Source: a virus (lineage: Duplodnaviria > Heunggongvirae > Uroviricota > Caudoviricetes). Taken from it: DNA of 64,000 nt. The position numbers were made by a program, and so were the translations under genes. Under the pieces are notes generated by a model. That model searched no databases. It worked only from the letters and a program-made list of their open reading frames with translations, and had not been told where the DNA came from. Shown here in pieces: positions 1,391 through 61,316 of the stretch. Position 1 is the first letter of the stretch, and each line of letters begins with the position of its first letter. The stretch is taken from IMG/VR virus record IMGVR_UViG_3300017792_000001, positions 200,697 to 264,696 of that record. The stretch is one strand, 5' to 3'.

Positions 1391-3436
1391 ATGGCGAAGA
1401 AGGCCAAGAAATCTCCGGTTGATGAAGCCGAGGTTGGCACAAAGAAACGCAAGAAGTCAGCGAGTCAAGACGGGTTCATTATTGCGGAAGGTTTGCAGGG
1501 TATCCGACTGAACCCAACCGTCTATCTCGGATCGCTCGGCCATGACATGGCATACCGCGTCGTCAAGGAAGAAGTTGACAACAGTTACGACGAAGCCGTT
1601 GCAGGTCGGAACAAGTTGATCGAGGTGATCCTCGACTATGACAATGACCGTCACATCGTGGCTGACGCCGCCGGCGGTATTCCGACCGACTACAAAAAGC
1701 TCGAAGATGGCAGCAAAGAAACGATCATGACCGCAGCGTTCACCCGAGCGCACGCCGGTGGCAAGTTCAACAACGAAGCGTACAAGACCTCGGCCGGTAC
1801 TCACGGTATCGGGGTCGCTGCCGTTAACGCTGTGTGTGAAGAACTCCGCGTCTGGTCCATGTACAACGGTCGGTGCGCTTTCCAATCGTTCGCGAAAGGC
1901 AAGATCACCACCGAAGGCAAAGACCCGATCAAGGTCAAAGCTGTGGACAAGGACGTGATGTCCCTGCTCACCATGAAGCAATCGAAGTACGGTACGATCA
2001 TCTGCGGCAAGCTCGACCAGACCATCGTGTCTGAGTCCGTGATGCGCGGGCAGAAGCTGCCGAAGGATTATGTTCACGCGATCCCACAAGCGAAGCCAAT
2101 CGCCAAGTGGTTGAAGAACATGGCGAACCTGAACCCTGGTCTGGAGATTCGTTTCTCCCTGATCAAGAAGGGCAAGCGCAAAGACTACGTGTTCATCAAC
2201 AAGAAGGACCTGTCGTGGGTTCCTCGCGCCATGTGCGAAGACCGCGAACTGGGTATGCTCGGCAAGCCACTTACTCACAAGTCGGAGCACATCAGCCTGA
2301 CCGTTGTGTGGGCAGAGCACCCGGACGCCGAGAACTTCCTGACGTTCGTGAACACCAGCCCGACTGTCGATGGCGGCTGGCACGTCAACGGCTTCGCGTC
2401 TGCCTTGATGTCTGCAATCAAGCCGTACCTGCCTGCCCCAAAGGGCAAGAAGAAAAGCACAGGCTTCTCGCAGAACGACCTGTTGATCGGCCTCACCGGC
2501 ATGTTCGACTATCGTATGCACGGTGCGCAGTACACGTCCCAGGTGAAAGACAAGCTCGCCAGCCGTGTTGACAAGTTGGTCTATGACGAACTGTTCCCCG
2601 TGATGGAGGAATACTTCAAGAACAACAAGAAGGTTGCAAACACGATCATCAAGCGCGCTCTGGTAATGACCAAAGGCCGTGAAGATCTGGCTGCAGTCGT
2701 CAAGTCCATGGCTGACGTGAAGAAGACCACGAAGGGTTCTGCCCTGCCATCGTCTCTGGCAGTCGCACCTAACTGCAAACCACATGAGCGCGAAATGTTC
2801 ATCGTGGAAGGTGACTCTGCGGCAGGTCCAGCAATCGACGCCCGTGACGCGACGTACCAAGAAGTGATGTGCGCGGGTGGTAAGCCGCTGAACAGCCTGA
2901 AAGCCACGTTGGCCAAAGTGCTGGGTCACGAAGAAGTCCAGAACATGCTGATTGGCCTTGGTGCTGACATCAAGACTCTGGATCCGAAGTCCGAGAACCC
3001 GATTCTCTCGACTGCGAACCTGCGTGTTGCGAACATCATCTTCCTCGTCGACCCGGACCCTGACGGTGGACACATCGCCGTACTGTTCCTCGCAGCGATC
3101 TACCGCTTGCTGCCAGATATGTTCAAAGAGGGTCGCGTCTGGTGTGTTCGTGCACCGCTGTATGCTGTGCTGCACCAAGGCGAACTCTACGGTGGCATGA
3201 CATTCAACGAGTGTCGCGCCAAAGCTCCGAAGGCTGTAAAAGACAAAGAGATTATTCGAATCAAAGGTTGGGGTGAAGTTGATGAAACGTACCTCGAACC
3301 AATCGCCTTCGATCCAGACAAGCGCAAACTGATTCGTCTCAACCCATTCGAGAACGCAGAACAGGCTGCCTGGTTCCGCGGCGTTGTTGCAGAAGATGCC
3401 GTGTACCGCCGTCGTTTGCTAGGGCTGGAGGACTAA
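1391..3436 (+). CDS. gyrB: Type IIA DNA topoisomerase subunit B (GyrB/ParE-like)
   Basis: GHKL motifs EEVDNSYDE, DAAGGIP, HAGGKF, GTHGIGVAAVNA; TOPRIM EGDSA, DPDPDGGHI; RIKGWGE. Confidence 0.95.
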   Translation: MAKKAKKSPVDEAEVGTKKRKKSASQDGFIIAEGLQGIRLNPTVYLGSLGHDMAYRVVKEEVDNSYDEAVAGRNKLIEVILDYDNDRHIVADAAGGIPTDYKKLEDGSKETIMTAAFTRAHAGGKFNNEAYKTSAGTHGIGVAAVNAVCEELRVWSMYNGRCAFQSFAKGKITTEGKDPIKVKAVDKDVMSLLTMKQSKYGTIICGKLDQTIVSESVMRGQKLPKDYVHAIPQAKPIAKWLKNMANLNPGLEIRFSLIKKGKRKDYVFINKKDLSWVPRAMCEDRELGMLGKPLTHKSEHISLTVVWAEHPDAENFLTFVNTSPTVDGGWHVNGFASALMSAIKPYLPAPKGKKKSTGFSQNDLLIGLTGMFDYRMHGAQYTSQVKDKLASRVDKLVYDELFPVMEEYFKNNKKVANTIIKRALVMTKGREDLAAVVKSMADVKKTTKGSALPSSLAVAPNCKPHEREMFIVEGDSAAGPAIDARDATYQEVMCAGGKPLNSLKATLAKVLGHEEVQNMLIGLGADIKTLDPKSENPILSTANLRVANIIFLVDPDPDGGHIAVLFLAAIYRLLPDMFKEGRVWCVRAPLYAVLHQGELYGGMTFNECRAKAPKAVKDKEIIRIKGWGEVDETYLEPIAFDPDKRKLIRLNPFENAEQAAWFRGVVAEDAVYRRRLLGLED

Positions 3437-5025
3437 TGGCCGCCAAGAAGAAGGTCAGCAAGAAAGCTGGCAAAGTGAAAGAAAAGAACCGCGACAGAAC
3501 GATTGCCAAGGACAGCAAGTCGCTGTACCCGATGCTCGGTCAGCGCGAAGACACAATCGAAGACATCGGCCTCCAGGAATACACCGAAGAATGTCTGCGC
3601 ATCTACGGCAGCTACGTCGTTGAAGACCGGGCAGTCCCTGACTTCCGTGACGGGTGCAAGCCTGTTCACCGTGCGCTGCTCTGGTCGTTGTCTGAACTGG
3701 GTCTGACCCCGGACAAGGGCTACAAGAAAGCGGCGCGTACTGTCGGTGACACCATCGGTAAGTTTCACCCTCACGGTGACGGTGCTGCTTATGGTGCGAT
3801 GGTCACGATTGCCAACACGATGCCGCCTGTGGTCGATGGTCAAGGTAACTGGGGCACGCCGATCAACCCGGCTGCTGCACAGCGATACACCGAAGCCAAG
3901 ATGTCGAAGTTTGCGCATCTGTTCATGCTCGACAGCAAGTACCTGTCGGTCGTGCCGAAGGTGCCGAACTTCTCTGGCGATGACGTGATCCCGCTGTACC
4001 TGCCAGCGCTGCTGCCGTACGTGTTGTTCAACGGTAACGTCCCGGCTCCGGCCTACGGCGTTCGTGCTGGTAACCCGAGCTTTAAGTTCACCGACGTTGC
4101 CAAGATCGTGATCGCCATGCTCAAGGGCAAAGCTGTCACTGCGAAGATGCTCGCGAAGCACATGGCGATTCACCACCCGTACGGTTGTGAGAACATCACC
4201 AGCGACGCCGAATATCTGAACATGATGGCAACCGGCAAAGGCAGCATTACCTATGCCCCGCTGATGGGTGTTGACTTCAAGACCCGCAAGATCAACATCC
4301 GGTCGTTCGTACCTGCCGGTCTGGCGAGTAAGGGCACCATCGACAAAACCCTGGCGAAGCTGAGCACGTTCAACGGTGTCAAGAAGGTGTTCTCGCAGCA
4401 AGGCAAGAAGACCAAAGGCTCCGGCCCGTACGGTGCGATCTTCGTTGTTGAAGTGGCTCGCAACGTCGGTGAAGATGCGTTCGCTGATCTGGTCGAGAAG
4501 GTCGAAGCACAGGTAACCAACAGCGTCGGCTATCGTCTCGGTATCACCATCCGTAAAGACGGCGAGCAGAACAAGTTCAAGTACCTGAGCTACGTCACGT
4601 TCTTCGAACAGTGGATCAAGTACCGCATTGCCCTTGAAATCAAACTGATCAAGTCCCTGATCGTCAAGGCTGAGCGCGACCTGCACGTCAACGAGGTGTA
4701 CCTGTTCGCTGTCGAGAACATGGACAAGATCCTCAAAGCCTTGCCGAAGGTGCTCACCAGCACTGACCCGGACAAGACGCTCGCGAAGATCCTGAGCATC
4801 CCGGTTGAAGACGCTGTGATCATCCTCGACCGGAAAGTTCGTCAGTTGGCTAAGATGGAAGCCGACGCACTGAAAGCCAAGATCAAGGACCTCAAGTCTG
4901 AAATCAAGACCCTGAACGCAGACCTGAAAGCTCCAGGTGAACGTGCAGCCCGTGACACGACTGAGCGCGTGAAGAAGTACCTGAAGAAACCTGACCTCAA
5001 CAAATCGGGGTTGACCTTCGAGTAA
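3436..5025 (+). CDS. gyrA: Type IIA DNA topoisomerase subunit A (GyrA/ParC-like, no C-terminal pinwheel)
   Basis: RAVPDFRDGCKPVHR, FHPHGD, DGQGNWG, catalytic AAAQRYT; only 529 aa; 1-nt overlap with the B subunit gene. Confidence 0.95.
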   Translation: MAAKKKVSKKAGKVKEKNRDRTIAKDSKSLYPMLGQREDTIEDIGLQEYTEECLRIYGSYVVEDRAVPDFRDGCKPVHRALLWSLSELGLTPDKGYKKAARTVGDTIGKFHPHGDGAAYGAMVTIANTMPPVVDGQGNWGTPINPAAAQRYTEAKMSKFAHLFMLDSKYLSVVPKVPNFSGDDVIPLYLPALLPYVLFNGNVPAPAYGVRAGNPSFKFTDVAKIVIAMLKGKAVTAKMLAKHMAIHHPYGCENITSDAEYLNMMATGKGSITYAPLMGVDFKTRKINIRSFVPAGLASKGTIDKTLAKLSTFNGVKKVFSQQGKKTKGSGPYGAIFVVEVARNVGEDAFADLVEKVEAQVTNSVGYRLGITIRKDGEQNKFKYLSYVTFFEQWIKYRIALEIKLIKSLIVKAERDLHVNEVYLFAVENMDKILKALPKVLTSTDPDKTLAKILSIPVEDAVIILDRKVRQLAKMEADALKAKIKDLKSEIKTLNADLKAPGERAARDTTERVKKYLKKPDLNKSGLTFE

Positions 5026-6064: not shown

Positions 6065-6292
6065 ATGCCACACATGCTGCAACTTGAACACCACCTGCCT
6101 TTCGCAATCATGGGCGACGCAGAACTCAAGCGTCTTGACGAGTTGGTTGCAGCAGGTGAGGATTTCATTATCCAGGTATACAAACCCTCAGATGACATCG
6201 CACGCCAGCTCCCAGGGCAAGGCTACATCGCGTATGTCAAAGCAGCACCAAAGGAAACCGACGATGATCAAAGTATTCAAACGGTGGATTAA
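6065..6292 (+). CDS. Hypothetical protein
   Basis: 75 aa ORF in the operon. Confidence 0.55.
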   Translation: MPHMLQLEHHLPFAIMGDAELKRLDELVAAGEDFIIQVYKPSDDIARQLPGQGYIAYVKAAPKETDDDQSIQTVD

Positions 6293-14327: not shown

Positions 14328-15692
14328 ATGGCTATCGACAAAGCGACGTTGAAAGAAATGGTTGGCAAGCGTATCACCATCGACGGTACCAAACACCGTG
14401 TGGAAAAAGTGGTCATGAAGACCGGCCTGATCGTCACACGCGATGGCGCAGAGGCTCTGGCGGAGGGCGTCTACAAGAAAGGTCCTGGGTTCTTCTATGA
14501 CTCGCCGAAGGGCAGCAAGAAGAAGGCTGCAGCCGCTGCCGAACCCGTGAAAGAAACTGCGCGTGCTCGCCGTGCCCGTGAGAAGGCAGAGGCTGAGCCA
14601 GTAGAGACAGCCCGCGAGAAACGTGCGCGTCTCAAGCGTGAAGCCGAGGAAGAGGAGGAACCAGCCAAGCCTGCGCGTGCTCGCCGTCGTTCCTCTGACA
14701 AGACTCCTGGCGCCAAGGGTGACGGTGCCAAAGTCCCTGGCAAGAAAAAGAAATTGTTTGAAGCGTTCACCCAGGCCATTGCCGAGCGTGTCAGTCAAGA
14801 GTCCTACGATCTGCTGGCCGAAGCGTACGGTGATCGTGGTGACTACGCCATCACGCCTGTTGCTGTCGGCGCCGCGTTCGACAATGACGCGCTCAAAATC
14901 ACCATCACCGTGATGTCGGCGGGCAAGTCGGCGAAGGAAATCAAAGCCTACATCCGCGACCATCGCGAGGCTACAGACATCGCCAGTGACGACGAGGAAG
15001 ATGATGACCTCGACGATGATGATCTGGAAGACGATGACAGCGAAGACGAGGACCTGGAGGATGACGACAGCCTCGAAGACGAGGAAGATGACGAGGAGGA
15101 CGATGATGACTCCGAAGACGCCTTCGAGGCTGCGTTGAACGAACTCTCCTTGAAGGATCTGCGCAAGATCGCCAAGGACATGGAAATCGACGACTACAAG
15201 GACTTCTCCAAGGAAGACCTGGCACAAGAACTGTCCGAGTACGAAGAATCGGATGTCCGTGAATCGGCAGCCACTGCCGGCGTAACACTTGGCGATGGCG
15301 ACGAGGAAGACGATGATGCAGAAGATGACGATGACGATGGATCGGAAGACGATGCCGACGACGAAGAACAGGAAGAAGCGGCTACTGTCGAAGACCTGGT
15401 GGGCGAGGTACTGGAAGTAGCACCAGACCTGAAAGCCAAGTCGGTCACCAAGTTTGTTGAAGCGTTCCTCGCCAACGACGAGTGCCAAGAGAAGTTTGAC
15501 GGCGAACTCGTACCTGGCCGTACCCAGCTGCAAGAGAAGGGCAACAAGGGCCCTGAAATGTTGCTGCTCGGTTACGACGAAGCCAACGAAGTGATCAAGC
15601 TGCTGAACATCAGCACCGGCAAGACTCGCAGCAAGACCATCAGCGAAGTCGTCCACATGGAAATCCTGGAAGCGGCTGACGACGCCGAGTAA
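14328..15692 (+). CDS. Multidomain acidic protein with Rho-N/HeH-like nucleic-acid-binding motif
   Basis: LNELSLKDLRKIAKDMEI...SKEDLAQEL between two D/E tracts; R/K-rich segment. Confidence 0.65.
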   Translation: MAIDKATLKEMVGKRITIDGTKHRVEKVVMKTGLIVTRDGAEALAEGVYKKGPGFFYDSPKGSKKKAAAAAEPVKETARARRAREKAEAEPVETAREKRARLKREAEEEEEPAKPARARRRSSDKTPGAKGDGAKVPGKKKKLFEAFTQAIAERVSQESYDLLAEAYGDRGDYAITPVAVGAAFDNDALKITITVMSAGKSAKEIKAYIRDHREATDIASDDEEDDDLDDDDLEDDDSEDEDLEDDDSLEDEEDDEEDDDDSEDAFEAALNELSLKDLRKIAKDMEIDDYKDFSKEDLAQELSEYEESDVRESAATAGVTLGDGDEEDDDAEDDDDDGSEDDADDEEQEEAATVEDLVGEVLEVAPDLKAKSVTKFVEAFLANDECQEKFDGELVPGRTQLQEKGNKGPEMLLLGYDEANEVIKLLNISTGKTRSKTISEVVHMEILEAADDAE

Positions 15693-19651: not shown

Positions 19652-19669
19652 TCATCCGGCCTGGTAACT

Positions 19670-19706
19670 GTAAACTGCTAACACACAGTACACGTTAGCA
19701 GTTTAC
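19670..19706. repeat. Perfect 13-bp inverted repeat overlapping an ACTGTAAA motif
   Basis: gtaaactgctaac (19670-82) / gttagcagtttac (19694-706). Confidence 0.85.
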
Positions 19707-19766
19707 TGCGGTAAGTGTAAAATCAATTCGTATTAGTTCACAACTCAAACAAGTGGAGATTCACAC

Positions 19767-20285
19767 ATGGCTAAGGCAAAAGCAAGCGCGAAGAAGAAAG
19801 TCGGCAAGAAAGGTAGCAAGAAGGACCTGCCGAAGTTCGACCTGACCGGTATGCTCGCCGTTACCCTGCTGTCCTGGCTGCAACAGCTTCAGGAAGCGGG
19901 CGCTGAAACCATCGAAGACGCTATCGACCTGGTCGGTGAAGGCGTCCCGGACACCGACGTCGATGATGACGCGGACGAAGACGACGACGCCGATGAAGAT
20001 GACGGCGACGACGAAGATGACGAAGAAGAGGAGGACGACGAGGAAGACGACGACTCCGACGAAGATGACGACGACGAGGACGATGAGGACTCGGACGACG
20101 ACGAAGATGATGACGAAGACGACGAGGAGGAAGATGATGACTCCGAAGACGACGACGATGACGAGGACGATGAAGAGGAGGACGACGAGGAAGACGACGA
20201 CTCCGATGATGACGATGATGAAGAAGAGGAAGATGACGACGACGAGGATGATGAAGACGACGAAGACGAAGAAGACTTCGACTGA
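19767..20285 (+). CDS. Poly-Asp/Glu protein with basic N-terminus
   Basis: About 110 nearly continuous D/E residues; GGAG RBS. Confidence 0.8.
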   Translation: MAKAKASAKKKVGKKGSKKDLPKFDLTGMLAVTLLSWLQQLQEAGAETIEDAIDLVGEGVPDTDVDDDADEDDDADEDDGDDEDDEEEEDDEEDDDSDEDDDDEDDEDSDDDEDDDEDDEEEDDDSEDDDDDEDDEEEDDEEDDDSDDDDDEEEEDDDDEDDEDDEDEEDFD

Positions 20286-35886: not shown

Positions 35887-38061
35887 ATGAAAATCAAGAA
35901 AGGTAAGGGTCTTCGGGCAAAGGGCGATAACATTTATGACCTTGCGCTCGACGACCCATTTGCGTTTCTGAAGGGTCTGCGCGGCGGTGAGATTGTCACT
36001 GCTGATGGCTTCGACCCTGACGCGATGAACAAAGCCGCTCACCTCATTGGGCACGGCAACTTTGATGAACAGGAGATTGACATTGCCCGGACGATCCGGG
36101 AAGTAGTTGACTCCAAGATCCTCGTACCGCGCGATATGAAGATTGACGACTCGGGTATTCCGGTTGCCAAGAACATTGTCGAGTGGTGCACCAAGGACAA
36201 GTTCTCCATGATCAATGGTGAACGTCCGTATATCGAACAAATCATCTGGGGCATTATCTCGTTCAACGAATGGTGCCCGCGCTGTACAGATGTCGAGTAC
36301 CTGTTTGACACGCACAAGGTTGATGACACCTACCGCAAGCTAGAGCGCAAAGTCGCCATGCTCGAAAACGGTGTCTGCCCGCATTGCAAATGGGGTCGGT
36401 CTAAACTGATCGCCAAGGGCAAGATGAAACTGATCCAGGAGCTGGCAGTCTGTGCTGGTCAGCGTTCTGGTAAGTCGATGTCCATTGCGGGTTACTTCGC
36501 GCCATATCTCACGCACCGTCTGCTCAAGCTCCAGAACCCCAACGCGGTTTACGGACTCAAGACCGGTACGATGCTGCACTGTACGTTCGTTGCGCTGACC
36601 TATGCTCAAGCCAAGGACACACTGTGGCAAAACTTCTACGCCACCCTAACGGAGTCTGCGTGGTTCAAAGAGTATCATTCGATGCTCAACCACTACAGCG
36701 ACAAGTACGGCGAGAAGCTCCTCAAATTCAACGACACCTATGTTGCTTATCCTTGCCGTGGCCTCATGGCTTACCCAGCGGGTCCAGACAAGCGGGTTCT
36801 CCGTGGCCGTACTCGTTACTTCACGGCAGTGGATGAGGTCGGTTACTTCGACAGTAACCGTGATACCAAAAAGGTGAAGGACAACGCCCACGAAGTATGT
36901 GGTGCACTTGACCGTTCGCTGCTGACTGTTCGTGGTGCTGCTGAATCGCTCCTGCGTGATGGTCATGATGACGTGTACCCAGGCTATGCCATGAACGTGT
37001 CGTCACCTTCTCACCGTAACGATATGATCATGACGCTGCTTCGTCGTGCTGAGAACTCGGACACAATGTACGGCGCACACCGCCCTACTTGGGAAGTAAA
37101 CCCGACTCTGCCACGCAATGGTGCCACGATCAAAGAAGCATTCCGTACGGATCCGCTGAACGCTGAGCGAGATTACGGTGCTGTTCCACCGCTGGCCTCC
37201 AACCCGTTCCTCCAGAATCTTTCTGAGATTGAGAACTGCCAAGGGCCGAAGTCGAACCCACTCACGCTGCGTCGCCGTGTGATCAACTCGAAGAAACGTG
37301 GCGAGTCGTTCACCTGGGCTGAGGTCAAGAAGTGCAAGAAGGGTAAGTACCCGACCATGCTCGCACTCGACGCCGGTTACACCAACAACTCCTTCTCTGG
37401 GGCAATTGGTCGGTACGATGACAAGCTCGGTGGTGTGCGAGTCGAATGCCTGTTTGAGGTTATCCCTGAACTCGGCGCTCCGCTCAATCACTCCAAGATT
37501 TTCGATGAACTGATCCTCCCTGTCATGGAAGCACGCAACGTCCGCATCCTGCTTGCTGACCGGTGGAACAGTATCAAGCTGCTGCAAGATGCCAAGCTCC
37601 TGCGTCCAGAATTGGAAGTAGCGGCACAGCACAGCCTGAAGTACAAGGACATCTTCAACATCAAGACGCTGATCCAACAAGGCACTCTGATCGTTCCCGC
37701 GATTGAGCGTGACTCGTTCAAGTCCTGTGTCGAGTTTGATGACGAACATTACCCGATGTGCTTCAACAACCAGCCTGCCTCTCACCTGTTGATGCAGATG
37801 GCAACTGTGAAAGATACAGGGAAGATGATTGATAAAGCGGACGGTTATACCGACGACTTGTTCCGGGCAACCGCTTTGCTCAACTGGGGTCTACATGAGG
37901 AGGAGTACCAAGAACTTCTCTCGATGGCTCCAATGGATATGACAGCAACCCGGCCCATTGCTATCGGTGCTTCGCGTCTCTACTCAGGTGGCGGCGGTGG
38001 TATTGGCGGTGGCAGTCAATCAGTCCCAGTAATCGGCGCCATGCTCGGCGGCCGCAGGTAA
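35887..38061 (+). CDS. Terminase large subunit
   Basis: Walker A AGQRSGKS, Walker B TAVDE, motif III VSSP, RNase H-like ALDAG and DDLF; two CxxC in the N-terminal part. Confidence 0.9.
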   Translation: MKIKKGKGLRAKGDNIYDLALDDPFAFLKGLRGGEIVTADGFDPDAMNKAAHLIGHGNFDEQEIDIARTIREVVDSKILVPRDMKIDDSGIPVAKNIVEWCTKDKFSMINGERPYIEQIIWGIISFNEWCPRCTDVEYLFDTHKVDDTYRKLERKVAMLENGVCPHCKWGRSKLIAKGKMKLIQELAVCAGQRSGKSMSIAGYFAPYLTHRLLKLQNPNAVYGLKTGTMLHCTFVALTYAQAKDTLWQNFYATLTESAWFKEYHSMLNHYSDKYGEKLLKFNDTYVAYPCRGLMAYPAGPDKRVLRGRTRYFTAVDEVGYFDSNRDTKKVKDNAHEVCGALDRSLLTVRGAAESLLRDGHDDVYPGYAMNVSSPSHRNDMIMTLLRRAENSDTMYGAHRPTWEVNPTLPRNGATIKEAFRTDPLNAERDYGAVPPLASNPFLQNLSEIENCQGPKSNPLTLRRRVINSKKRGESFTWAEVKKCKKGKYPTMLALDAGYTNNSFSGAIGRYDDKLGGVRVECLFEVIPELGAPLNHSKIFDELILPVMEARNVRILLADRWNSIKLLQDAKLLRPELEVAAQHSLKYKDIFNIKTLIQQGTLIVPAIERDSFKSCVEFDDEHYPMCFNNQPASHLLMQMATVKDTGKMIDKADGYTDDLFRATALLNWGLHEEEYQELLSMAPMDMTATRPIAIGASRLYSGGGGGIGGGSQSVPVIGAMLGGRR

Positions 38062-38067
38062 GAGACC

Positions 38068-38613
38068 ATGATCGACATTTCCAAGTATAAGTGGTTTGTG
38101 TACGGCGGTCGCGACATCACCCTCGTCACAGACCATCCGGAGTTCGACCTGCAAATGGTCAAGGACTCCAAGTTCGGGTATCGCAAGATCGGCGCGAATC
38201 ATTACATCGTCAGCCGGAAGATCCTCGACATCCGTTTCAAGGTTAAAGAGAAAGACGCCACGCGCATCATCACTAACTCTGTCGGTTGGAAAGGTACGAT
38301 CCGTGGCACCAAGGTAGAAGCAGGCATTGGCGGTAAGCAGAAGCCTGTGAAAGCCCATCCGGGTGATTCAAACTTCCCGGACCCGAACGACAAGAACACC
38401 TACATTCTGGACATCGACTCCTCCAATCTCAAACGAGCTTGGCTGGATAAGAAGGCCAAAGAACTCCATGTGATCTTTCACAGCGATGTTCACTGGCTAT
38501 ACGAAGATGTGTCACTTGCACAGGCGAAGCAGATGGAGAGCGCCCCTTCACAGGGGCAATACTTCCATTACCGCATCCGCAATGTGAAAAAACAACGCAA
38601 GATCAGCGGTTGA
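38068..38613 (+). CDS. KTSC-domain protein with an extra N-terminal domain
   Basis: IDSSNL...ELHVIFHS..WLYEDVS....MESAPSQGQYFHYRIR. Confidence 0.8.
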   Translation: MIDISKYKWFVYGGRDITLVTDHPEFDLQMVKDSKFGYRKIGANHYIVSRKILDIRFKVKEKDATRIITNSVGWKGTIRGTKVEAGIGGKQKPVKAHPGDSNFPDPNDKNTYILDIDSSNLKRAWLDKKAKELHVIFHSDVHWLYEDVSLAQAKQMESAPSQGQYFHYRIRNVKKQRKISG

Positions 38614-38622
38614 GGTTCAAAG

Positions 38623-40509
38623 ATGCGAATTAAACGCCGCCCTACTTACACGCATATGGGGAATCCCTCGCCAGGTGGTACAGTCGCCGGCGAGCGTGAC
38701 CTCGGCACCCACAACGCGCAGAAGCGTGAAGATCGTGGGCGCTCCGGGAAGATGGAAGCAACTGCCGGTGCAGCTACTGGCATGCGTAACACTAGCGTCA
38801 ACAACCTGCCGGTCGAGATTGACATTGATCCGTTGCTCAAGGGCATCGTCTTCTCTGAGGATCTTGAGCAGAAGAAACTGGTAATGCGGATCTACAAGGA
38901 CATTTACTACAACGACCCGATCGGTGGTTCGTGCGTAGACTTGACCTCGACGCTCCCGTTCTCCGACTTCAACATCGGCGGTGTGCAGAACAGCAAGGTA
39001 TCGGACACGTTCAACGAGGTGATCGAACGCCTGAACATCCGTACTCTCCTGCCTGAGTTGTCTATCGACCACCAAGTTACCGGTGCGTTCGTGGGCAACA
39101 TGCTGTACAACCCGCAGAAGAATACCTTCGTTGACCTGATCTGCCATCAGTACGAGAACTGCAAGGTCGATCCACTGCCGTTCTACTCGCAGGACCCGAT
39201 GATCACCGTCGCGTTCCCCGAGTCGCACAAGACCATTCTGTCGTCCGATAGTCCGCGTATCAAGAAGCTGCGCGAGTACCTGGGCCCAGAAGTCGTCAAG
39301 CAAATCAGTAACGATGCACTGGAGCTGGATCCGCTTTCGACGATCTACATCCCGCGCAAATCGTTCACGCACTCGACTGGTGTGTCGTACTACCGCCGCA
39401 TCCTGCCGATCTGGTTGCTTGAGAAGAACCTGTTCCGCGGTACGCTCGTTGAGTCTGCGCGTCGTCAACGTGGTATCCTCCACCTGACTCTGGGTGACGG
39501 CGACCAGTGGGAACCAACACTCGCTGATATGAACATGGCGATGGAGTTGTTCCAGAATGCTGACGCTGACCCACTGGGTGCAGTGATCGCAACGCGCATG
39601 GGTATCGCTTCTGAGGAGATCCGCCAAGGTGGTGACTTCTGGAAGGTAACCGATATCTGGGACCAGACCATGGCGATGAAGCTGCGCGCCCTTGGTATCA
39701 GTGAGTCGTTCCTCTCCGGTGAAGCGACGTACTCGAACCAAGACACAAGCCTGACCGTGTTCACCGAAGCGCTGCGTGCGTATCGTGACACCATCACCAC
39801 GAAGCTGTTCTACAACAAGATTTTCCCGCTGGTATCTGCGCTGCACGGTTACACGGTCAACAATGCTGGCAAGCTGTCGATCAAAGGCAACATGCTCGAC
39901 AAGTTTGACACCATGAGCAACCACGAGATTCTGCAAGATGGTTCGCGTCTGCTGATCCCGTCTGTTCACTGGGCCAAGCAACTCAAACCAGAAGGCGACC
40001 AAGCGTATCTCGATATGCTCCAGAACCTCACAGAAAAGGGCGTGCCTGTTCCTCTGCGAGCAATGGCTGCAGCCGGTGGATTCAACCTCGACAGTTTGCT
40101 CGCGGACCAAGAGGACGACTTCGAACTCCTCAAACGTATCGGCAGATACCAGAAGAAGCTGGGCGAAGTGAAGAAGGAATTCTTCCCAGAAGCCGCAGAC
40201 AGCGACATCGAAGCTACTGCTCGCAGCCAAGCGCTGCAAGGCCTGATGTTCGACAACTTCATGGCAGGTGGTCGTTCTACGATTCTCAACCAAGGCAACG
40301 GTCGTATTCCTGCTCTCGCCATGCGTGACTTCGGTGAAGCATCCGAGGTTGCAGGTGAGACGCACGATGGCAAGCGTCGTTGGTTGCCGAACCAGAAGCT
40401 GGCTAACGAACGGGTTAACCGCAAGATTGCCAAGCAGTTGGCGGGTATTGTGAAAATGAACAATACACCACTGACTCGCATGACCATGTCGAAGCGCATG
40501 GACGTGTAA
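38623..40509 (+). CDS. Portal protein
   Basis: 628 aa two genes after the terminase; portal-like features (IYKDIYYNDPIGGSCVD, GVSYYRRI, LRALGISESFLSGEATYS). Confidence 0.75.
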   Translation: MRIKRRPTYTHMGNPSPGGTVAGERDLGTHNAQKREDRGRSGKMEATAGAATGMRNTSVNNLPVEIDIDPLLKGIVFSEDLEQKKLVMRIYKDIYYNDPIGGSCVDLTSTLPFSDFNIGGVQNSKVSDTFNEVIERLNIRTLLPELSIDHQVTGAFVGNMLYNPQKNTFVDLICHQYENCKVDPLPFYSQDPMITVAFPESHKTILSSDSPRIKKLREYLGPEVVKQISNDALELDPLSTIYIPRKSFTHSTGVSYYRRILPIWLLEKNLFRGTLVESARRQRGILHLTLGDGDQWEPTLADMNMAMELFQNADADPLGAVIATRMGIASEEIRQGGDFWKVTDIWDQTMAMKLRALGISESFLSGEATYSNQDTSLTVFTEALRAYRDTITTKLFYNKIFPLVSALHGYTVNNAGKLSIKGNMLDKFDTMSNHEILQDGSRLLIPSVHWAKQLKPEGDQAYLDMLQNLTEKGVPVPLRAMAAAGGFNLDSLLADQEDDFELLKRIGRYQKKLGEVKKEFFPEAADSDIEATARSQALQGLMFDNFMAGGRSTILNQGNGRIPALAMRDFGEASEVAGETHDGKRRWLPNQKLANERVNRKIAKQLAGIVKMNNTPLTRMTMSKRMDV

Positions 40510-40513
40510 ACGG

Positions 40514-40520
40514 TAATTTA
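40514..40520 (+). promoter_or_regulatory. TAATTTA candidate late promoter, preceded by GTGTAAA
   Basis: Lies 5 nt before the structured non-coding element. Confidence 0.55.
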
Positions 40521-40525
40521 TCGGC

Positions 40526-40622
40526 ATCAGACACACGCAGATTAACTAAGGGCTGGTGGATTGCTGCGAGCTTCCACCAATACCTGGCGGTTACTCCTTT
40601 CTCCGTTCTGCGTGTGTTTGAT
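40526..40622 (+). ncRNA. Putative structured non-coding RNA
   Basis: 16-bp closing stem 40526-41/40607-22 (one G-U pair), inner stem 40554-60/40573-79, no convincing + strand ORF, flanked by a promoter motif and a terminator. Confidence 0.6.
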
Positions 40623-40637
40623 AACTCCTCATCTTCA

Positions 40638-40671
40638 AGGGCTAGCGCGACGGCGTTTAGCCCTATTTTTT
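40638..40671 (+). terminator. Intrinsic terminator
   Basis: agggctagcgc-gacg-gcgtttagccct followed by atttttt. Confidence 0.8.
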
Positions 40672-40714
40672 GGTCTCCAGAACTGTAAATTCTGAGAAAG
40701 ACAGGAGTACGTCT

Positions 40715-41023
40715 ATGCTCAACGAACGTCCCCACATGCGCGTCAACCTCACCAATGAAGAACTGGCAGAAGTGCGTGTGCTGATCGACTCAAAGCGATA
40801 CCAGAATGGAGACACCAGCCACCTCGCTGCCAAGTTGAAAGAACTGGCGAAGAAGAACGGTGGCAACTTCGATTACCGCATGGCGTTGCTCGGTGTCATC
40901 ACCGACTTGAATGTGATCGACACGCAGGTTAAGCACGTCAAGTTTGATCTGACGGTTAATCTCACCGATCTACCGACTTCTACCAAAGTAAAGGAGCACT
41001 TCTTTGGCGACCGTAAAGTTTAA
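40715..41023 (+). CDS. Hypothetical protein
   Basis: AGGAG RBS; ACTGTAAA at 40682. Confidence 0.65.
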   Translation: MLNERPHMRVNLTNEELAEVRVLIDSKRYQNGDTSHLAAKLKELAKKNGGNFDYRMALLGVITDLNVIDTQVKHVKFDLTVNLTDLPTSTKVKEHFFGDRKV

Positions 41024-41540
41024 CTCCAAAATTCCCGAGTACGCATTCCTGTCTGCGTTCTATCCCGGTCCGTTCATCGCGCCGTTGGGAAAGAAGATGG
41101 TGCTGTTCCCGCATCGTGAAGCCTACTATCAGGCGCACAAGACGAAGGACCAAGAGCAGGTGGCGAAGATCGTCAACTCGCTTGAAGGCAGTCGTGCGAA
41201 GTATTTCGGTAGTGCCAAGGGCGGTGCTCGCATCATCGACGGGTTCGACAAGAAACGCAAGGACATCATGCGTGAAGCGATCCGCTACCAGATGACCCAG
41301 AACCCGTTGATCCGTGCCTTGCTGCATTCGACTGGCTCGGCGAAGATCAAAGAAGAGGCGTACTGGGACGACTACTTCGGCACCGGGCGCGACGGTAAAG
41401 GCAAGAACGTTCACGGCAAGCTGCTGGTTGAGTACCGCGACGAAGGTATCCCAGAAGACGAACAGGAGAAGTACAAGCCGAAGGCCAAGTACAAAACACT
41501 CCACTTCTATCCAATAATCAAGGCAGAGCGCAATGACTAA
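41004..41540 (+). CDS. NADAR-family (YbiA / DarG1 / T4 gp30.3-like) hydrolase
   Basis: FLSAFY, EAYYQAHK, QNPLIRALLHSTG, EEAYWDDYFG, GKNVHGKLL; TTG start after AAGGAG. Confidence 0.85.
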   Translation: MATVKFNSKIPEYAFLSAFYPGPFIAPLGKKMVLFPHREAYYQAHKTKDQEQVAKIVNSLEGSRAKYFGSAKGGARIIDGFDKKRKDIMREAIRYQMTQNPLIRALLHSTGSAKIKEEAYWDDYFGTGRDGKGKNVHGKLLVEYRDEGIPEDEQEKYKPKAKYKTLHFYPIIKAERND

Positions 41541-50021: not shown

Positions 50022-50047
50022 CAGGTCTCCAATCTATCCCTAGTGCA

Positions 50048-55650: not shown

Positions 55651-57039
55651 ATGCAGATTTCATTTCCGATGTCGATGCCTGCTTCAATTCAGGCAACTGC
55701 TGCCGCTCTGGCTGACATCAAGAAAGGCAGTACAGTCGCGATTCAAGTGGACACGCGCAAATGGTTCCTGGGTACTGTCACCAGTAAAGGTAGCAAGAAG
55801 ATCGCGGTCGATACCTTTGATGGTGTTTACTCGATTGCTACCGAGGACGTGGACGATGTTGTGCGCAGCGTCGATCTGTCGGCTATGAAAGCTGCCGAAG
55901 CCAAGCGTGCAATGAAAGCCACGTACACCGCTACCCAGTTAAAAGCGTTGACGCCGAAAGCAGCAACCAAGACCGCACTCAAAGCGCCGAAGGTCACTGC
56001 ACCTGCGAAGCCTCCGAAGGCTGAACCCAAGGCCAAGGTGATTGATCAGGAAGTAGGTAAAGGCAGCAAGCTTGCACCTGCTCCGAAGACGAAGAAGGTA
56101 GCTACTGCCAATCTCTACGGCATGGCATCGTTCACTCGTCGTGACGGCACGAACCCGATGGTCAGCATCTACAAGAAGATTTTCGGTGCCAGTCCACCAC
56201 ACGCGGGTACGAAGTTCAAGGTGAAAGACGGTAGTGATTCGCTGATGTGCGAAGTAAATCACATGGTCAGCAACCACGTCATGGTAGTCGATACCGAAGC
56301 GCGCCGCAATGTGGAGTTCATCTTCGTCAAAGACCAAGGTGTTTACCGCAACGACGAATACAGCGCCATTCCAGCACAGTATCAGAATCTGGTCAGCAAG
56401 CCACGAGCGCAGACCAGTATGCCAACGAAGCCGAGTCCGAATGTCAGCACCAAGACACCAGCACCGCGCATCGTTGAACCGTACAGCTATCGTGACAAGT
56501 ACGGCGAGACGGAACTGACCGACGCAGCCCTGCCTACTGACATCAGGGATCCAGCGATCTACAAGCAGACGTTCTACGGGCGCGTGCTGAGTACAGGTCG
56601 GGCATCGTCTCACCTGAGTGAGGTAGTGATCGTTGGTACTGGCACCTTCAAAGGCAAGACTGCCTGGGTAGCGTTCCCAATTCGCGACAAGACTGACCGT
56701 CCACGTCTGCTGTACTACCCGATCCATGCACCGAAACCTGAGTGGCTCACCAAGCCGCAAGTGTCGTTCGAGGATCTGAAACGCTACCGCCTGCGCAGTC
56801 AGCAGAAAGCGGAAGTGATGAATGATCGCAAGGAGAAGAAGGCTGAACTGGGTGCCCAAGTGGCCCAGACCATGGAGCTTCGTGTAGGGTATAACGCCCT
56901 GATCAAGTTCAGCAACGGCAACTTCTGGAAGCAGATCCTGCAAGTCGATCATGACAAGCAAGTGATCTACATTCAAGGTAGCCGCACCAAACGTCGCACC
57001 ATTCCGTTTGCTCTCATCCAGCAGACTGCACAGAAATAA
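55651..57039 (+). CDS. Multidomain basic protein with MQISFPM leader (putative internal head protein)
   Basis: SH3/KOW-like beta segments joined by K/P/A linkers. Confidence 0.6.
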   Translation: MQISFPMSMPASIQATAAALADIKKGSTVAIQVDTRKWFLGTVTSKGSKKIAVDTFDGVYSIATEDVDDVVRSVDLSAMKAAEAKRAMKATYTATQLKALTPKAATKTALKAPKVTAPAKPPKAEPKAKVIDQEVGKGSKLAPAPKTKKVATANLYGMASFTRRDGTNPMVSIYKKIFGASPPHAGTKFKVKDGSDSLMCEVNHMVSNHVMVVDTEARRNVEFIFVKDQGVYRNDEYSAIPAQYQNLVSKPRAQTSMPTKPSPNVSTKTPAPRIVEPYSYRDKYGETELTDAALPTDIRDPAIYKQTFYGRVLSTGRASSHLSEVVIVGTGTFKGKTAWVAFPIRDKTDRPRLLYYPIHAPKPEWLTKPQVSFEDLKRYRLRSQQKAEVMNDRKEKKAELGAQVAQTMELRVGYNALIKFSNGNFWKQILQVDHDKQVIYIQGSRTKRRTIPFALIQQTAQK

Positions 57040-60200: not shown

Positions 60201-61316
60201 ATGTCCAAACCAGCATTCGCCGGTGCAAGCCTTGTCCTGAAGGACGGCAGCCCAATCACCGACCTGCGCCTCGGCAAAGGCCGTGAACTCGCTCTGTCCG
60301 CTTCGACTGGCGACATCAACGCTTCGAGCACCAAGGACGCGATGGTTGTCCTGGGCCAACTGATGCAAGCATACGCCTCTGGCGAAATCATGCATCAACA
60401 GCCACAGACCATGTCTGCGCGCGAAGAAGCCACCGCTGCTACCGAAATGCGTCGTCAAGTTCTGGCCGAAGCCCGTGCTGACGTGACCGGCGCCAAGTGG
60501 GCCGCCCTGGGCGCCTCCCTGGCTCAACAAGTGAACGAACAAGCTGACCGTGAAGGCTTCGTGCGGAAGCTGATGGTCGGTAACACTCTGACCCAGGGTC
60601 AGTTCCAGCGTATCCCGATGCCGACCCATGACACCATGGCCGTCATCGCTACCTCCAGCGCGAACGTTGGTTACCAGACCATCCGTAACCGCGTGTTCAC
60701 CCCGGACGAGTTCGAAATTCAGGCCAACGTTCGCGTTGAAAACCTGGACATCCAACAAGTCAACGGCGACCTGCTGGATCACGCGTACAACGACGCGCTG
60801 CAATCCATCATGGTTGCAGAAGACCGTCTGTGGAAGAAAGCTGCTGACGCCACCGTCGGTGTTGTCAACAACCTGGAACTGATCGCTGGCGAACTGACCA
60901 CCAAGAACCTGGGTCGTCTGCGTCAAGCCATCGCTCGCTGGGGCCTGCCTGCTACCCACATCGTGATGTCCAACGATTACTGGGCTGACGTCATCGGTTC
61001 GAACGACTTCGCAACGTTCTTCGACCCGATCACCAAGTACGACCTGGTTCTGAACGGCCAGATCGGTACCCTGGTTGGCATGAACATCATCACCGACGCA
61101 TTCCGTCAGCCGAACCAGAAGGTTCTGAACCCTGGCGAAATCTACGTGGTGGCCTCGCCTGAGAACCACGGTGCCTACTCCACTCGTGGCGGCATCCAGT
61201 CCTCGCCTACCAACGGCGCTGACGCTGGTAACAGCACCCGCGGCTGGTTCATGGTTGAACCGTTCAGCTTGGTAATCGCGAACGTGCGCTCCGTGGTCAA
61301 AGGTCGTCGCATCTAA
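60201..61316 (+). CDS. Major capsid protein (HK97 fold)
   Basis: 371 aa; strong codon bias; MVAEDRLW, GQIGTLVGMNIITD, PGEIYVV, GWFMVE; position in head operon. Confidence 0.85.
   Translation: MSKPAFAGASLVLKDGSPITDLRLGKGRELALSASTGDINASSTKDAMVVLGQLMQAYASGEIMHQQPQTMSAREEATAATEMRRQVLAEARADVTGAKWAALGASLAQQVNEQADREGFVRKLMVGNTLTQGQFQRIPMPTHDTMAVIATSSANVGYQTIRNRVFTPDEFEIQANVRVENLDIQQVNGDLLDHAYNDALQSIMVAEDRLWKKAADATVGVVNNLELIAGELTTKNLGRLRQAIARWGLPATHIVMSNDYWADVIGSNDFATFFDPITKYDLVLNGQIGTLVGMNIITDAFRQPNQKVLNPGEIYVVASPENHGAYSTRGGIQSSPTNGADAGNSTRGWFMVEPFSLVIANVRSVVKGRRI

Follow-up and report, generated by a model that had tools for sequence, protein, structure and literature searches.

A covarying three-way-junction RNA behind the portal gene of PaBG-like jumbo phages, a candidate late small RNA with anti-Shine-Dalgarno-like loops

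The stretch of phage DNA analysed here (hereafter the window, 64,000 nucleotides) was taken from IMGVR_UViG_3300017792_000001, a complete IMG/VR phage genome of 277.6 kb that ends in direct terminal repeats, where it spans bases 200,697-264,696, and it carries directly behind its portal gene a structured element that is the subject of this report. The portal gene (38623-40509, plus strand, with the stop codon TAA at 40507-40509; phrog_16240, E 9.7e-271) is preceded by the genes for a large terminase of the classical TerL type (35887-38061; phrog_17415) and a KTSC-domain protein (38068-38613), and is separated by a gap of 205 nt from the next open reading frame (ORF). This 102-aa ORF (40715-41023), with the ribosome-binding site (RBS) AGGAG at 40703-40707 and its ATG at 40715, could be assigned to neither a Pfam nor a PHROG family; the gene after it encodes a NADAR protein, and baseplate genes also lie downstream. 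The nearest named relative is the Pseudomonas jumbo phage PaBG (Baikalvirus), with a portal of 80.6% amino acid identity. The element occurs once per genome, and the terminal repeats lie at the ends of the contig, far from the post-portal locus.

The element is built on the plus strand around a closing helix, P1, in which a 16-nt 5' arm (ATCAGACACACGCAGA, 40526-40541) pairs with a 16-nt 3' arm (TCTGCGTGTGTTTGAT, 40607-40622) over 16 bp with one G-U. The 5' arm leads through a junction strand, J1/2 (UUAACUA, 40542-40548; UUAAY is conserved in the alignment A6 described below), into P2, a long hairpin with internal loops (40549-40585) which includes the apical stem TGGTGGA/TCCACCA (40554-40560 with 40573-40579) and ends in the hexaloop GCUGCG (40563-40568), closed by U40562-A40569. 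A short 4-bp hairpin, P3 (40587-40606), presents the loop UUACUCCUUUCU (40591-40602), which resembles an anti-Shine-Dalgarno (anti-SD) sequence, and the anti-SD-like ACUCCUUUCUCC occupies part of this loop and its 3' edge. A single-stranded spacer (40623-40637), containing a second ACUCCUC at 40624-40630, then connects P1 to an intrinsic terminator (40638-40671), in which a GC-rich hairpin (40638-40664) is directly followed by a U-run on the transcribed strand (U6, 40666-40671). The original prediction, which was made from the letters of the window alone, had described the 16-bp stem with its one G-U, the apical stem, ACUCCUUUCUCC and the terminator, as well as GTGTAAA (40504-40510, overlapping the portal stop) and TAATTTA (40514-40520), and all are found at the positions it gave. 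Its stem-bubble-stem interior has to be replaced, for comparative covariation shows that the first 97 nt form a three-way junction of P1, P2 and P3, in which ACUCCUUUCUCC belongs to a hairpin of its own. The repeat AAGGGCU, from which an alternative pairing had been proposed, is real (40548 and 40637); the repeat is not conserved in relatives, and the pairing falls with it.

The minimum free energy (MFE) of 40504-40680 is -65.4 kcal/mol, compared with -45.8 +/- 4.0 kcal/mol for dinucleotide shuffles (z -4.84), none of 200 shuffles folding as well. Only five inverted repeats of at least 14 nt with arms less than 150 nt apart exist in the 64-kb window, the P1 repeat being the most complementary. 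The other four (14-21 nt) lie at 60656-60738, 6068-6161, 56667-56788 and 15068-15132.

Portal-linked loci were gathered from IMG/VR, JGI metagenomes and Logan/ENA assemblies, and 14 phages with portals 73-95% identical were found to share this layout in a post-portal gap of ~190-230 nt (the window, L003, L135, L154, L155, PaBG, L156, L004, L012, L157, L159, L160 and the L006/L158 type). Folded singly, each of the 14 gave the P1 (14-17 bp), P2 and P3 topology, P3 being lost in the L159 lineage, despite P1 arm sequences that are unrelated to one another, as exemplified by AUCAGACACACGCAGA, GAGCAGGCACGAUCGG, GCAGGUACGAUCAGA, CAUCGAACGCUCACAGA and GGGAGGUUGAGUCGA. A covariance model built from five sequences recovered a further seven, with plus-strand scores of 37-80 bits; over all twelve, the plus strand scores 37-101 bits, and no minus-strand score is above 26 bits. 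In the alignment of these 12 sequences (A6), which was fitted to the covariance model and from which the covariation counts are taken, 92.9% of cells pair, compared with 35-45% when the partners are slid by 1-3 columns; changes on both sides are seen at 27 of the 30 pairs, and the observed values were reached by none of 500 shuffles. P1 itself shows changes on both sides at 14 of its 16 pairs, and the P2 helices also covary. The P1 swaps are already visible in a plain MAFFT alignment, and the folds of single sequences are independent of any alignment. The stem that the original prediction had proposed to check in the portal-downstream region of relatives is hence one maintained by compensatory change.

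At paired positions G-U outnumbers A-C by 34 to 5. This excess and the presence of the U-run on one side only speak for a plus-strand RNA and against a DNA cruciform or a minus-strand product. In the window, a plus-strand frame of 44 aa and a minus-strand frame of 106 aa run open across the element; such frames are inconsistent between relatives (in L154 just 40 codons are open on either strand), and the element is therefore regarded as non-coding. Taken as a structured plus-strand RNA, the element is almost certainly correctly described. The best-conserved nucleotides are those of the loop and junction, namely UU-RCUGCG-AGC, GA-UUAAY and the closing pairs, with the inner P1 pairs invariant (G-C in 12/12 sequences, A-U in 10/10). 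The P2 tip (U/C)U-RCUGCG-AGC is kept in 13 homologues including the L006 type, with GGC instead of AGC in L160. The terminator, wherever the contig of a relative extends to it, is again a GC-rich hairpin, with different stem sequences, followed by 6-8 U.

The reach of the family was delimited by several searches. The covariance models R1 and R2 miss the L006/L158 variant (9.4 bits) and the RNAs of Lu11, HRDY3 and L138, and the putative homology of the L006 type is based on synteny, topology and the common UU-ACUGCG-AGC loop. A blastn search in distant mode with 40400-40800 against 50,697 phage records gave no match, although PaBG was among the records, which means that the RNA is too diverged at the sequence level. 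Motif scans of viral and genome contigs (TTGCTGCGAGCTTC; ATTAAY..TGCTGCGAGC) returned, among the matches listed, almost entirely chance hits; after these had been filtered by the covariance model and a P1-complementarity script, only known loci remained, none of them in bacterial genomes. This constitutes weak evidence that the RNA is restricted to PaBG-like phages.

Immediately upstream of P1, by 5 nt, lies TAATTTA (40514-40520, plus strand), a predicted -10-like promoter of late class from which the RNA would start at ~40525-40528. All 14 phages that carry the RNA have TAATTT(A) at this place, 0-4 nt past the portal stop and with 5-12 nt between it and P1. Across the genome of the window, 17 exact TAATTTA sites occur, 6.5 times the mean of 2.6 for 34 other 7-mers of the same composition, and 10 of the 17 stand 10-80 nt upstream of a Shine-Dalgarno (SD)-led ORF of at least 90 aa; examples in the window are 29661, 46964, 50048, 57341 and 63939. 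The genes behind sTAATTTAy encode tail-sheath proteins (twice), an endolysin and a SprT-like protein, and it is because of the tail-sheath genes and the endolysin that the motif is assigned to the late class. At its other promoter-like sites the motif runs straight into genes, with no terminator between.

A second predicted promoter class is represented by AACTGTAAA (40681-40689, plus strand), which belongs to the next gene, lies past the terminator and outside the RNA, and so marks the 3' boundary of the latter. It has 14 exact sites in the genome against ~2 expected, mostly 11-38 nt before an RBS and ATG, examples in the window being 19666 and 40681. The AACTGTAAAC motif class precedes genes for the DNA polymerase, an Arc-like regulator and small ORFs (an earlier class), and neither of the two motif classes has an evident -35 element, both often standing directly after terminators. 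The GenBank record of Lu11 labels CTGTAAAT... a 'putative middle/late promoter', which is the same motif as the AACTGTAAA class. Every RNA-bearing relative whose contig reaches that far has (A/G)(C/G)TGTAAA after the terminator, with L155 and L159 showing AAGTGTAAA(C/T) as the downstream promoter. Given the use of this form in L155 and L159, the variant of the CTGTAAA-type motif that overlaps the portal stop in the window (GTGTAAAC, 40504-40511, plus strand), shared only by the closest relative L003, may be functional too. Phages of the PaBG type lack an RNA polymerase gene and encode sigma-70-like factors (PMC7412058), which fits motifs that consist of a -10 element only; the sigma factors of PaBG are genes 118 and 112.

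Two further observations concern these motifs. At 19666-19722 of the window, the AACTGTAAAC motif lies within an inverted repeat of 12-13 bp (TAAACTGCTAAC / GTTAGCAGTTTA); behind it comes another motif, GTGTAAAA, 45 nt ahead of the gene at 19767. The site may be an operator-controlled or tandem promoter. GGTCTCC stands directly after a terminator U-run at just two loci genome-wide (40672-40678 and 50022-50028 of the window; 241368 and 250719 of the genome), and the post-portal copy is conserved among relatives as GGYCTSC.

The predicted RNA would thus extend from ~40526 to ~40670, a length of ~145 nt, and is probably a unit with its own promoter and terminator, the promoter being deduced from the statistics of the motif and from the fact that it is present where the RNA is. 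The independent late RNA of about 100-145 nt envisaged originally is in this way supported by the late-class motif, the terminator, the separate promoter of the next gene and the covariation, all of which are evidence from sequence and comparison.

The distribution of the element among related phages points in the same direction. Relatives without the RNA (L161, L162, L164, L165, NCTB, Yoloswag, JA29 and fHe-Yen9-02) also have no TAATTTA at the post-portal position; L161, L162, L164 and L165 lack the whole cassette, L162 having no gap at all and L161 retaining only CTGTAAAT, directly past the portal stop, between the portal and NADAR genes. Promoter, RNA and terminator are gained or lost jointly, as expected of one cassette inserted before the downstream promoter, and the predicted layout is that of a classic independently transcribed accessory gene.

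Other arrangements are also encountered at this position. In L163 (2555-2668; portal 72% identical), TAATTTA, a small hairpin AATGTCA...TGACATT and the terminator are kept in ~60 nt, the three-way junction being gone. More distant relatives with portals 52-61% identical have a post-portal gap of at least 250 nt, namely L013 (Lu11; 3490-3720), L014 (HRDY3; 3330-3575) and L138 (2985-3300). The gap of Lu11 and HRDY3 contains TAATTTA and CTGTAAAT, a multi-branch fold closed by a long stem and a terminator that is nearly identical between both, and that of L138 contains TAATTTA and a long stem enclosing ~150 nt. The interiors of these three RNAs differ from the junction RNA, and a two-sequence consensus fold of Lu11 and HRDY3 was uninformative; the Lu11-type RNA is treated here as a different RNA, and that of L138 as a third form. 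The post-portal RNA slot is accordingly wider than the junction-RNA family, and the presence of different structured RNAs behind the portal genes of Lu11, HRDY3 and L138 raises, quite speculatively, the possibility of a conserved link between this slot and head assembly.

The adjacent protein genes show variation of their own. The 102-aa protein is kept in seven relatives (alignment A8; M.V.VT..E..E.R.L...GD..L...NGG.F), and its AlphaFold model (pLDDT, the predicted local distance difference test, of 77) matched no fold in the PDB at E <= 0.001. In L154, an unrelated ORF occupies the next-gene position although the RNA is present. The 102-aa protein was considered as a partner of the RNA and set aside, no link being established, as it has no recognisable fold and is replaced by the unrelated ORF in L154. 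Inteins with LAGLIDADG homing endonucleases (PF14890/PF14528) are found in the portal (~1,080-1,093 aa; P0007, P0024, P0056 and P0058) or large terminase (1,222 aa; L161 and L162) of several relatives, the portal and terminase of the window being intein-free. In L012 (3001-4888), the portal ORF ends at 4536 (511 aa) and resumes in another frame, which denotes a frameshift or an assembly error.

Against known RNA families, a cmscan of 40000-41200 of the window with Rfam 15 returned nothing at E <= 10, and for eight related loci at E <= 0.5 no family reached its gathering score; the Infernal/Rfam comparison suggested originally has therefore given no known family. Four identities had been put forward for the RNA, of which two are not supported. 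The first, a 6S-like decoy of RNA polymerase, is contradicted by the fold: 6S RNA (RF00013) is an interrupted rod of ~180 nt with a central bubble resembling an open promoter, whereas the present RNA is a 97-nt three-way junction with two hairpins, and the 6S model was unmatched both in the window (E <= 10) and in the eight related loci (E <= 0.5). With 6S RNA and the '6S' transcript of lambda PR'-tR' the present RNA has in common that it is a small RNA of the abundant type, and with the lambda transcript also its predicted course from a late promoter to a terminator; from the latter it differs in that late promoters elsewhere in the genome of the window need no antitermination and that the next gene has its own promoter.

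The second, a packaging RNA (pRNA) like that of phi29 (RF00044), shares with the present RNA a three-way junction closed by a long 5'/3' helix and a position adjoining a packaging gene. Unlike in phi29, the loops are not mutually complementary, no CGCAGC being available in the P3 loop (L3) or spacer for the GCUGCG of the P2 loop (L2), so that no ring would be formed; L3 is variable, P3 is dispensable in L159, the RNA is missing in some relatives, and the pRNA model was unmatched in the window and the eight related loci. Nor does the motor context correspond, since the phi29 setting of protein-primed DNA and the gp16 ATPase is replaced here by a TerL-type terminase and a portal, encoded in a genome of 277.6 kb whose ends are direct repeats.

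The alpha-proteobacterial small RNA (sRNA) MmgR acts in trans and depends on Hfq, and its targeting is predicted to rest on an anti-SD motif (PMC7143759). The present RNA resembles MmgR/SuhB (alpha-r8, RF00519) in its single-stranded anti-SD motif of the CUCC type just upstream of a GC-rich terminator, and differs in its three-way junction and in being viral and not bacterial. In L159, the 3' module aligns to RF00519 over CUCC-UAGACUU, the terminator and the U-run with 33.2 bits against a gathering score of 41; the other seven of the eight related loci gave no such match, nor did the window at E <= 10. What is seen is a resemblance of 3' modules, not membership of the family.

Type I 3' untranslated region (UTR)-derived sRNAs such as DapZ and MicL offer another comparison, as the present RNA starts a few bases past the portal stop and has a terminator common to the operon, differing in that its predicted promoter, a phage late-class motif, lies past the stop codon and not within the ORF. 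ONT-cappable-seq has mapped ncRNA1 and ncRNA2 of PAK_P3 and further candidates of phiKZ and 201phi2-1 (PMC10914365, PMC11512511). Like the present RNA, these Pseudomonas phage RNAs are short, structured, terminator-ended, intergenic and genus-conserved in lytic or jumbo phages; several of them are late and abundant. No sequence or structure homology connects them with the present RNA, which is further distinguished by a predicted promoter of its own directly past a stop codon and by a covarying three-way junction.

Two further candidates were rejected. A riboswitch is disfavoured by the lack of any Rfam aptamer match, by a P1 of 14-17 bp in every homologue, which cannot switch, by the AAGGGCU alternative pairing not being conserved and by the promoter between terminator and ORF. 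A Y RNA/Ro60 ribonucleoprotein was likewise dismissed, TROVE (PF05731) being absent from the complete phage genome and no Y RNA match having been obtained. As for an antiterminator of the HK022 put type, which would modify in cis the RNA polymerase transcribing it so that terminators are read through, the genomic context argues against it, given the predicted promoter downstream.

The best reading, held tentatively and at somewhat less than even confidence, is a late trans-acting small RNA with anti-SD-like loops. According to this proposal, host RNA polymerase with a phage sigma factor would initiate at TAATTTA just upstream of P1 and transcription would end at the intrinsic terminator; acting in trans late in infection, the RNA would dampen the translation of mRNAs of the host, or of phage mRNAs made earlier, by pairing its exposed CUCC or CCUUU with their ribosome-binding sites of the GGAG type, while the rigid junction and conserved hexaloop would stabilise the RNA or dock a protein. 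Beside the P2 tip and the junction, a single feature recurs in most lineages: nearly every homologue has an unpaired C/U-rich tract (CUCC or CCUUU) in the P3 loop, the spacer or both. It lies in the P3 loop in most lineages, additionally in the spacer in the window, L154 and L004, and solely in the spacer in L159 and L160. That the position of the tract varies while it stays unpaired is as expected of an accessible pairing seed. The unpaired anti-SD match amounts to 8 nt in the window, L003, L004 and L157 (equalled by at most 2/200 shuffles; 2/200 for the window) and to 6 nt in PaBG, L156 and L135. Among the four identities of the original prediction, the SD-pairing sRNA hence fits best, with CUCC/CCUUU recurring unpaired in most homologues and the only near-match in Rfam, that of L159, being to MmgR/suhB, though below threshold.

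Several points weigh against it. The anti-SD match is absent in L155 and covers only 4 nt in L006, L154 and L159 (MFE fold), and the complementarity is in any case unspecific, because any C/U-rich loop matches any SD. When 617 crude phage translation-initiation regions were scanned for targets with duplexfold, using L3, spacer and L2 as queries, none beat shuffled queries. A plain seed sRNA needs neither a 16-bp P1 nor a conserved junction nor an invariant hexaloop, and the conservation of these parts beyond the needs of a seed hints at a protein or tertiary partner. The covariation counts rest on an alignment fitted to the model, and the start site, the timing and even the expression of the RNA are predicted from sequence features.

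A rival to this proposal is a protein-binding RNA, in which the junction and the invariant RCUGCG hexaloop would offer a decoy, a sponge or a scaffold to some protein of phage or host, such as an RNA chaperone, a ribosomal or translation factor recognising the 16S 3' end, or a defence sensor, and the C/U-rich loops are protein contacts and not pairing seeds. Such a role is doubtful, though it would account for the loop and junction being best conserved, a pattern typical of a recognition surface, and for an anti-SD complementarity that differs between lineages with no RNA target standing out. Its difficulty is the partner: no candidate has emerged, Ro60/TROVE, RNase III, Hfq and ProQ were not found to be encoded by the phage, the neighbouring 102-aa protein offers no recognisable fold and gives way to an unrelated ORF in L154, and the 6S, Y RNA and pRNA models were unmatched.

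The RNA could alternatively act in cis, TAATTTA being the late promoter of the downstream genes, and junction and terminator an attenuator or processive-antitermination element controlling whether late transcription continues into the small ORF, the NADAR gene and the baseplate genes, in the manner of the short lambda PR'-tR' transcript or the HK022 put RNA. The order of promoter, structured RNA, strong terminator and genes is what such a leader would show, Pseudomonas phages often form short 5' UTR RNAs via premature termination (PMC10914365), and L163 retains promoter and terminator without the junction RNA; in the window, the P3 loop also shows two blocks of complementarity (UACUCCU and UUUCUC, judged by eye) with the RBS region of the next gene. 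This arrangement is nonetheless unlikely, as the downstream genes have their own conserved promoter directly past the terminator, the other TAATTTA sites lead into genes without a terminator, so that late genes need no antitermination, a 16-bp P1 cannot switch and no alternative pairing is conserved, and the whole cassette is missing in L161, L162, L164 and L165.

An improbable reading, which had also been among the original options as an RNase III-processed 3' element, makes the structure the 3' UTR of the terminase-portal mRNA, where the helix would block 3' exonucleases or serve as an RNase III or RNase E processing site, the small RNA would be a processing product and TAATTT an AU-rich cleavage site instead of a promoter. 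The loose preference of RNase E fits UAA|UUU, and the terminator is common to element and portal operon. In PAK_P3, moreover, ncRNA1 and ncRNA2 are late, abundant and processed from 3' UTRs (PMC10914365). Against these points, TAATTTA elsewhere is promoter-like, stands past terminators and lies directly upstream of late genes, the 3' end has protection enough in the terminator hairpin, close relatives manage without the element, and stability alone would leave the conserved loop and junction sequences unexplained.

More speculative, and quite improbable, is that the RNA is a late structural mimic or decoy which shows a CCUCCUU/CUCCUUU loop resembling the 16S 3' end, together with the invariant hexaloop, to a host factor. 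Its effect could then be to titrate a component of translation initiation or a defence toxin directed at the ribosome, or to sequester host mRNAs with an SD on a global scale, in which last case it would be an RNA counterpart, by analogy, of the T4 shut-off proteins RegB and RegA. By far the least credible is an element at the level of DNA, whether a cruciform, an operator or a signal for packaging or replication, or else a hidden gene for a small protein on one of the strands. A perfect inverted repeat would covary in DNA as well, and frames are open in the window, but the excess of G-U over A-C, the three nested helices with a U-run on one strand, the distance of the terminal repeats from the locus and the lack of conservation of the frames all speak against it.

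A search of the literature found no non-coding RNA or transcriptome described for PaBG-like phages. To our knowledge, a role has been assigned to very few non-coding RNAs of virulent phages, and no transcript map exists for jumbo phages of the PaBG/Lu11 group. The RNA family described here is absent from Rfam and is new, within the kind, already known, of phage small RNAs that have a promoter and a terminator to themselves (PMC10914365). What is gained is a new, well-supported family of RNAs whose fold is a three-way junction and whose boundaries are predicted, alongside two promoter classes predicted phage-wide, TAATTTA (late) and AACTGTAAA (earlier), for both of which PaBG growing on P. aeruginosa PAO1 provides a culturable model. 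Should the anti-SD reading be true, the family would represent an RNA-based late retuning of translation by a lytic phage; should the protein-decoy reading be true instead, the conserved hexaloop would be a handle with which to find the partner.

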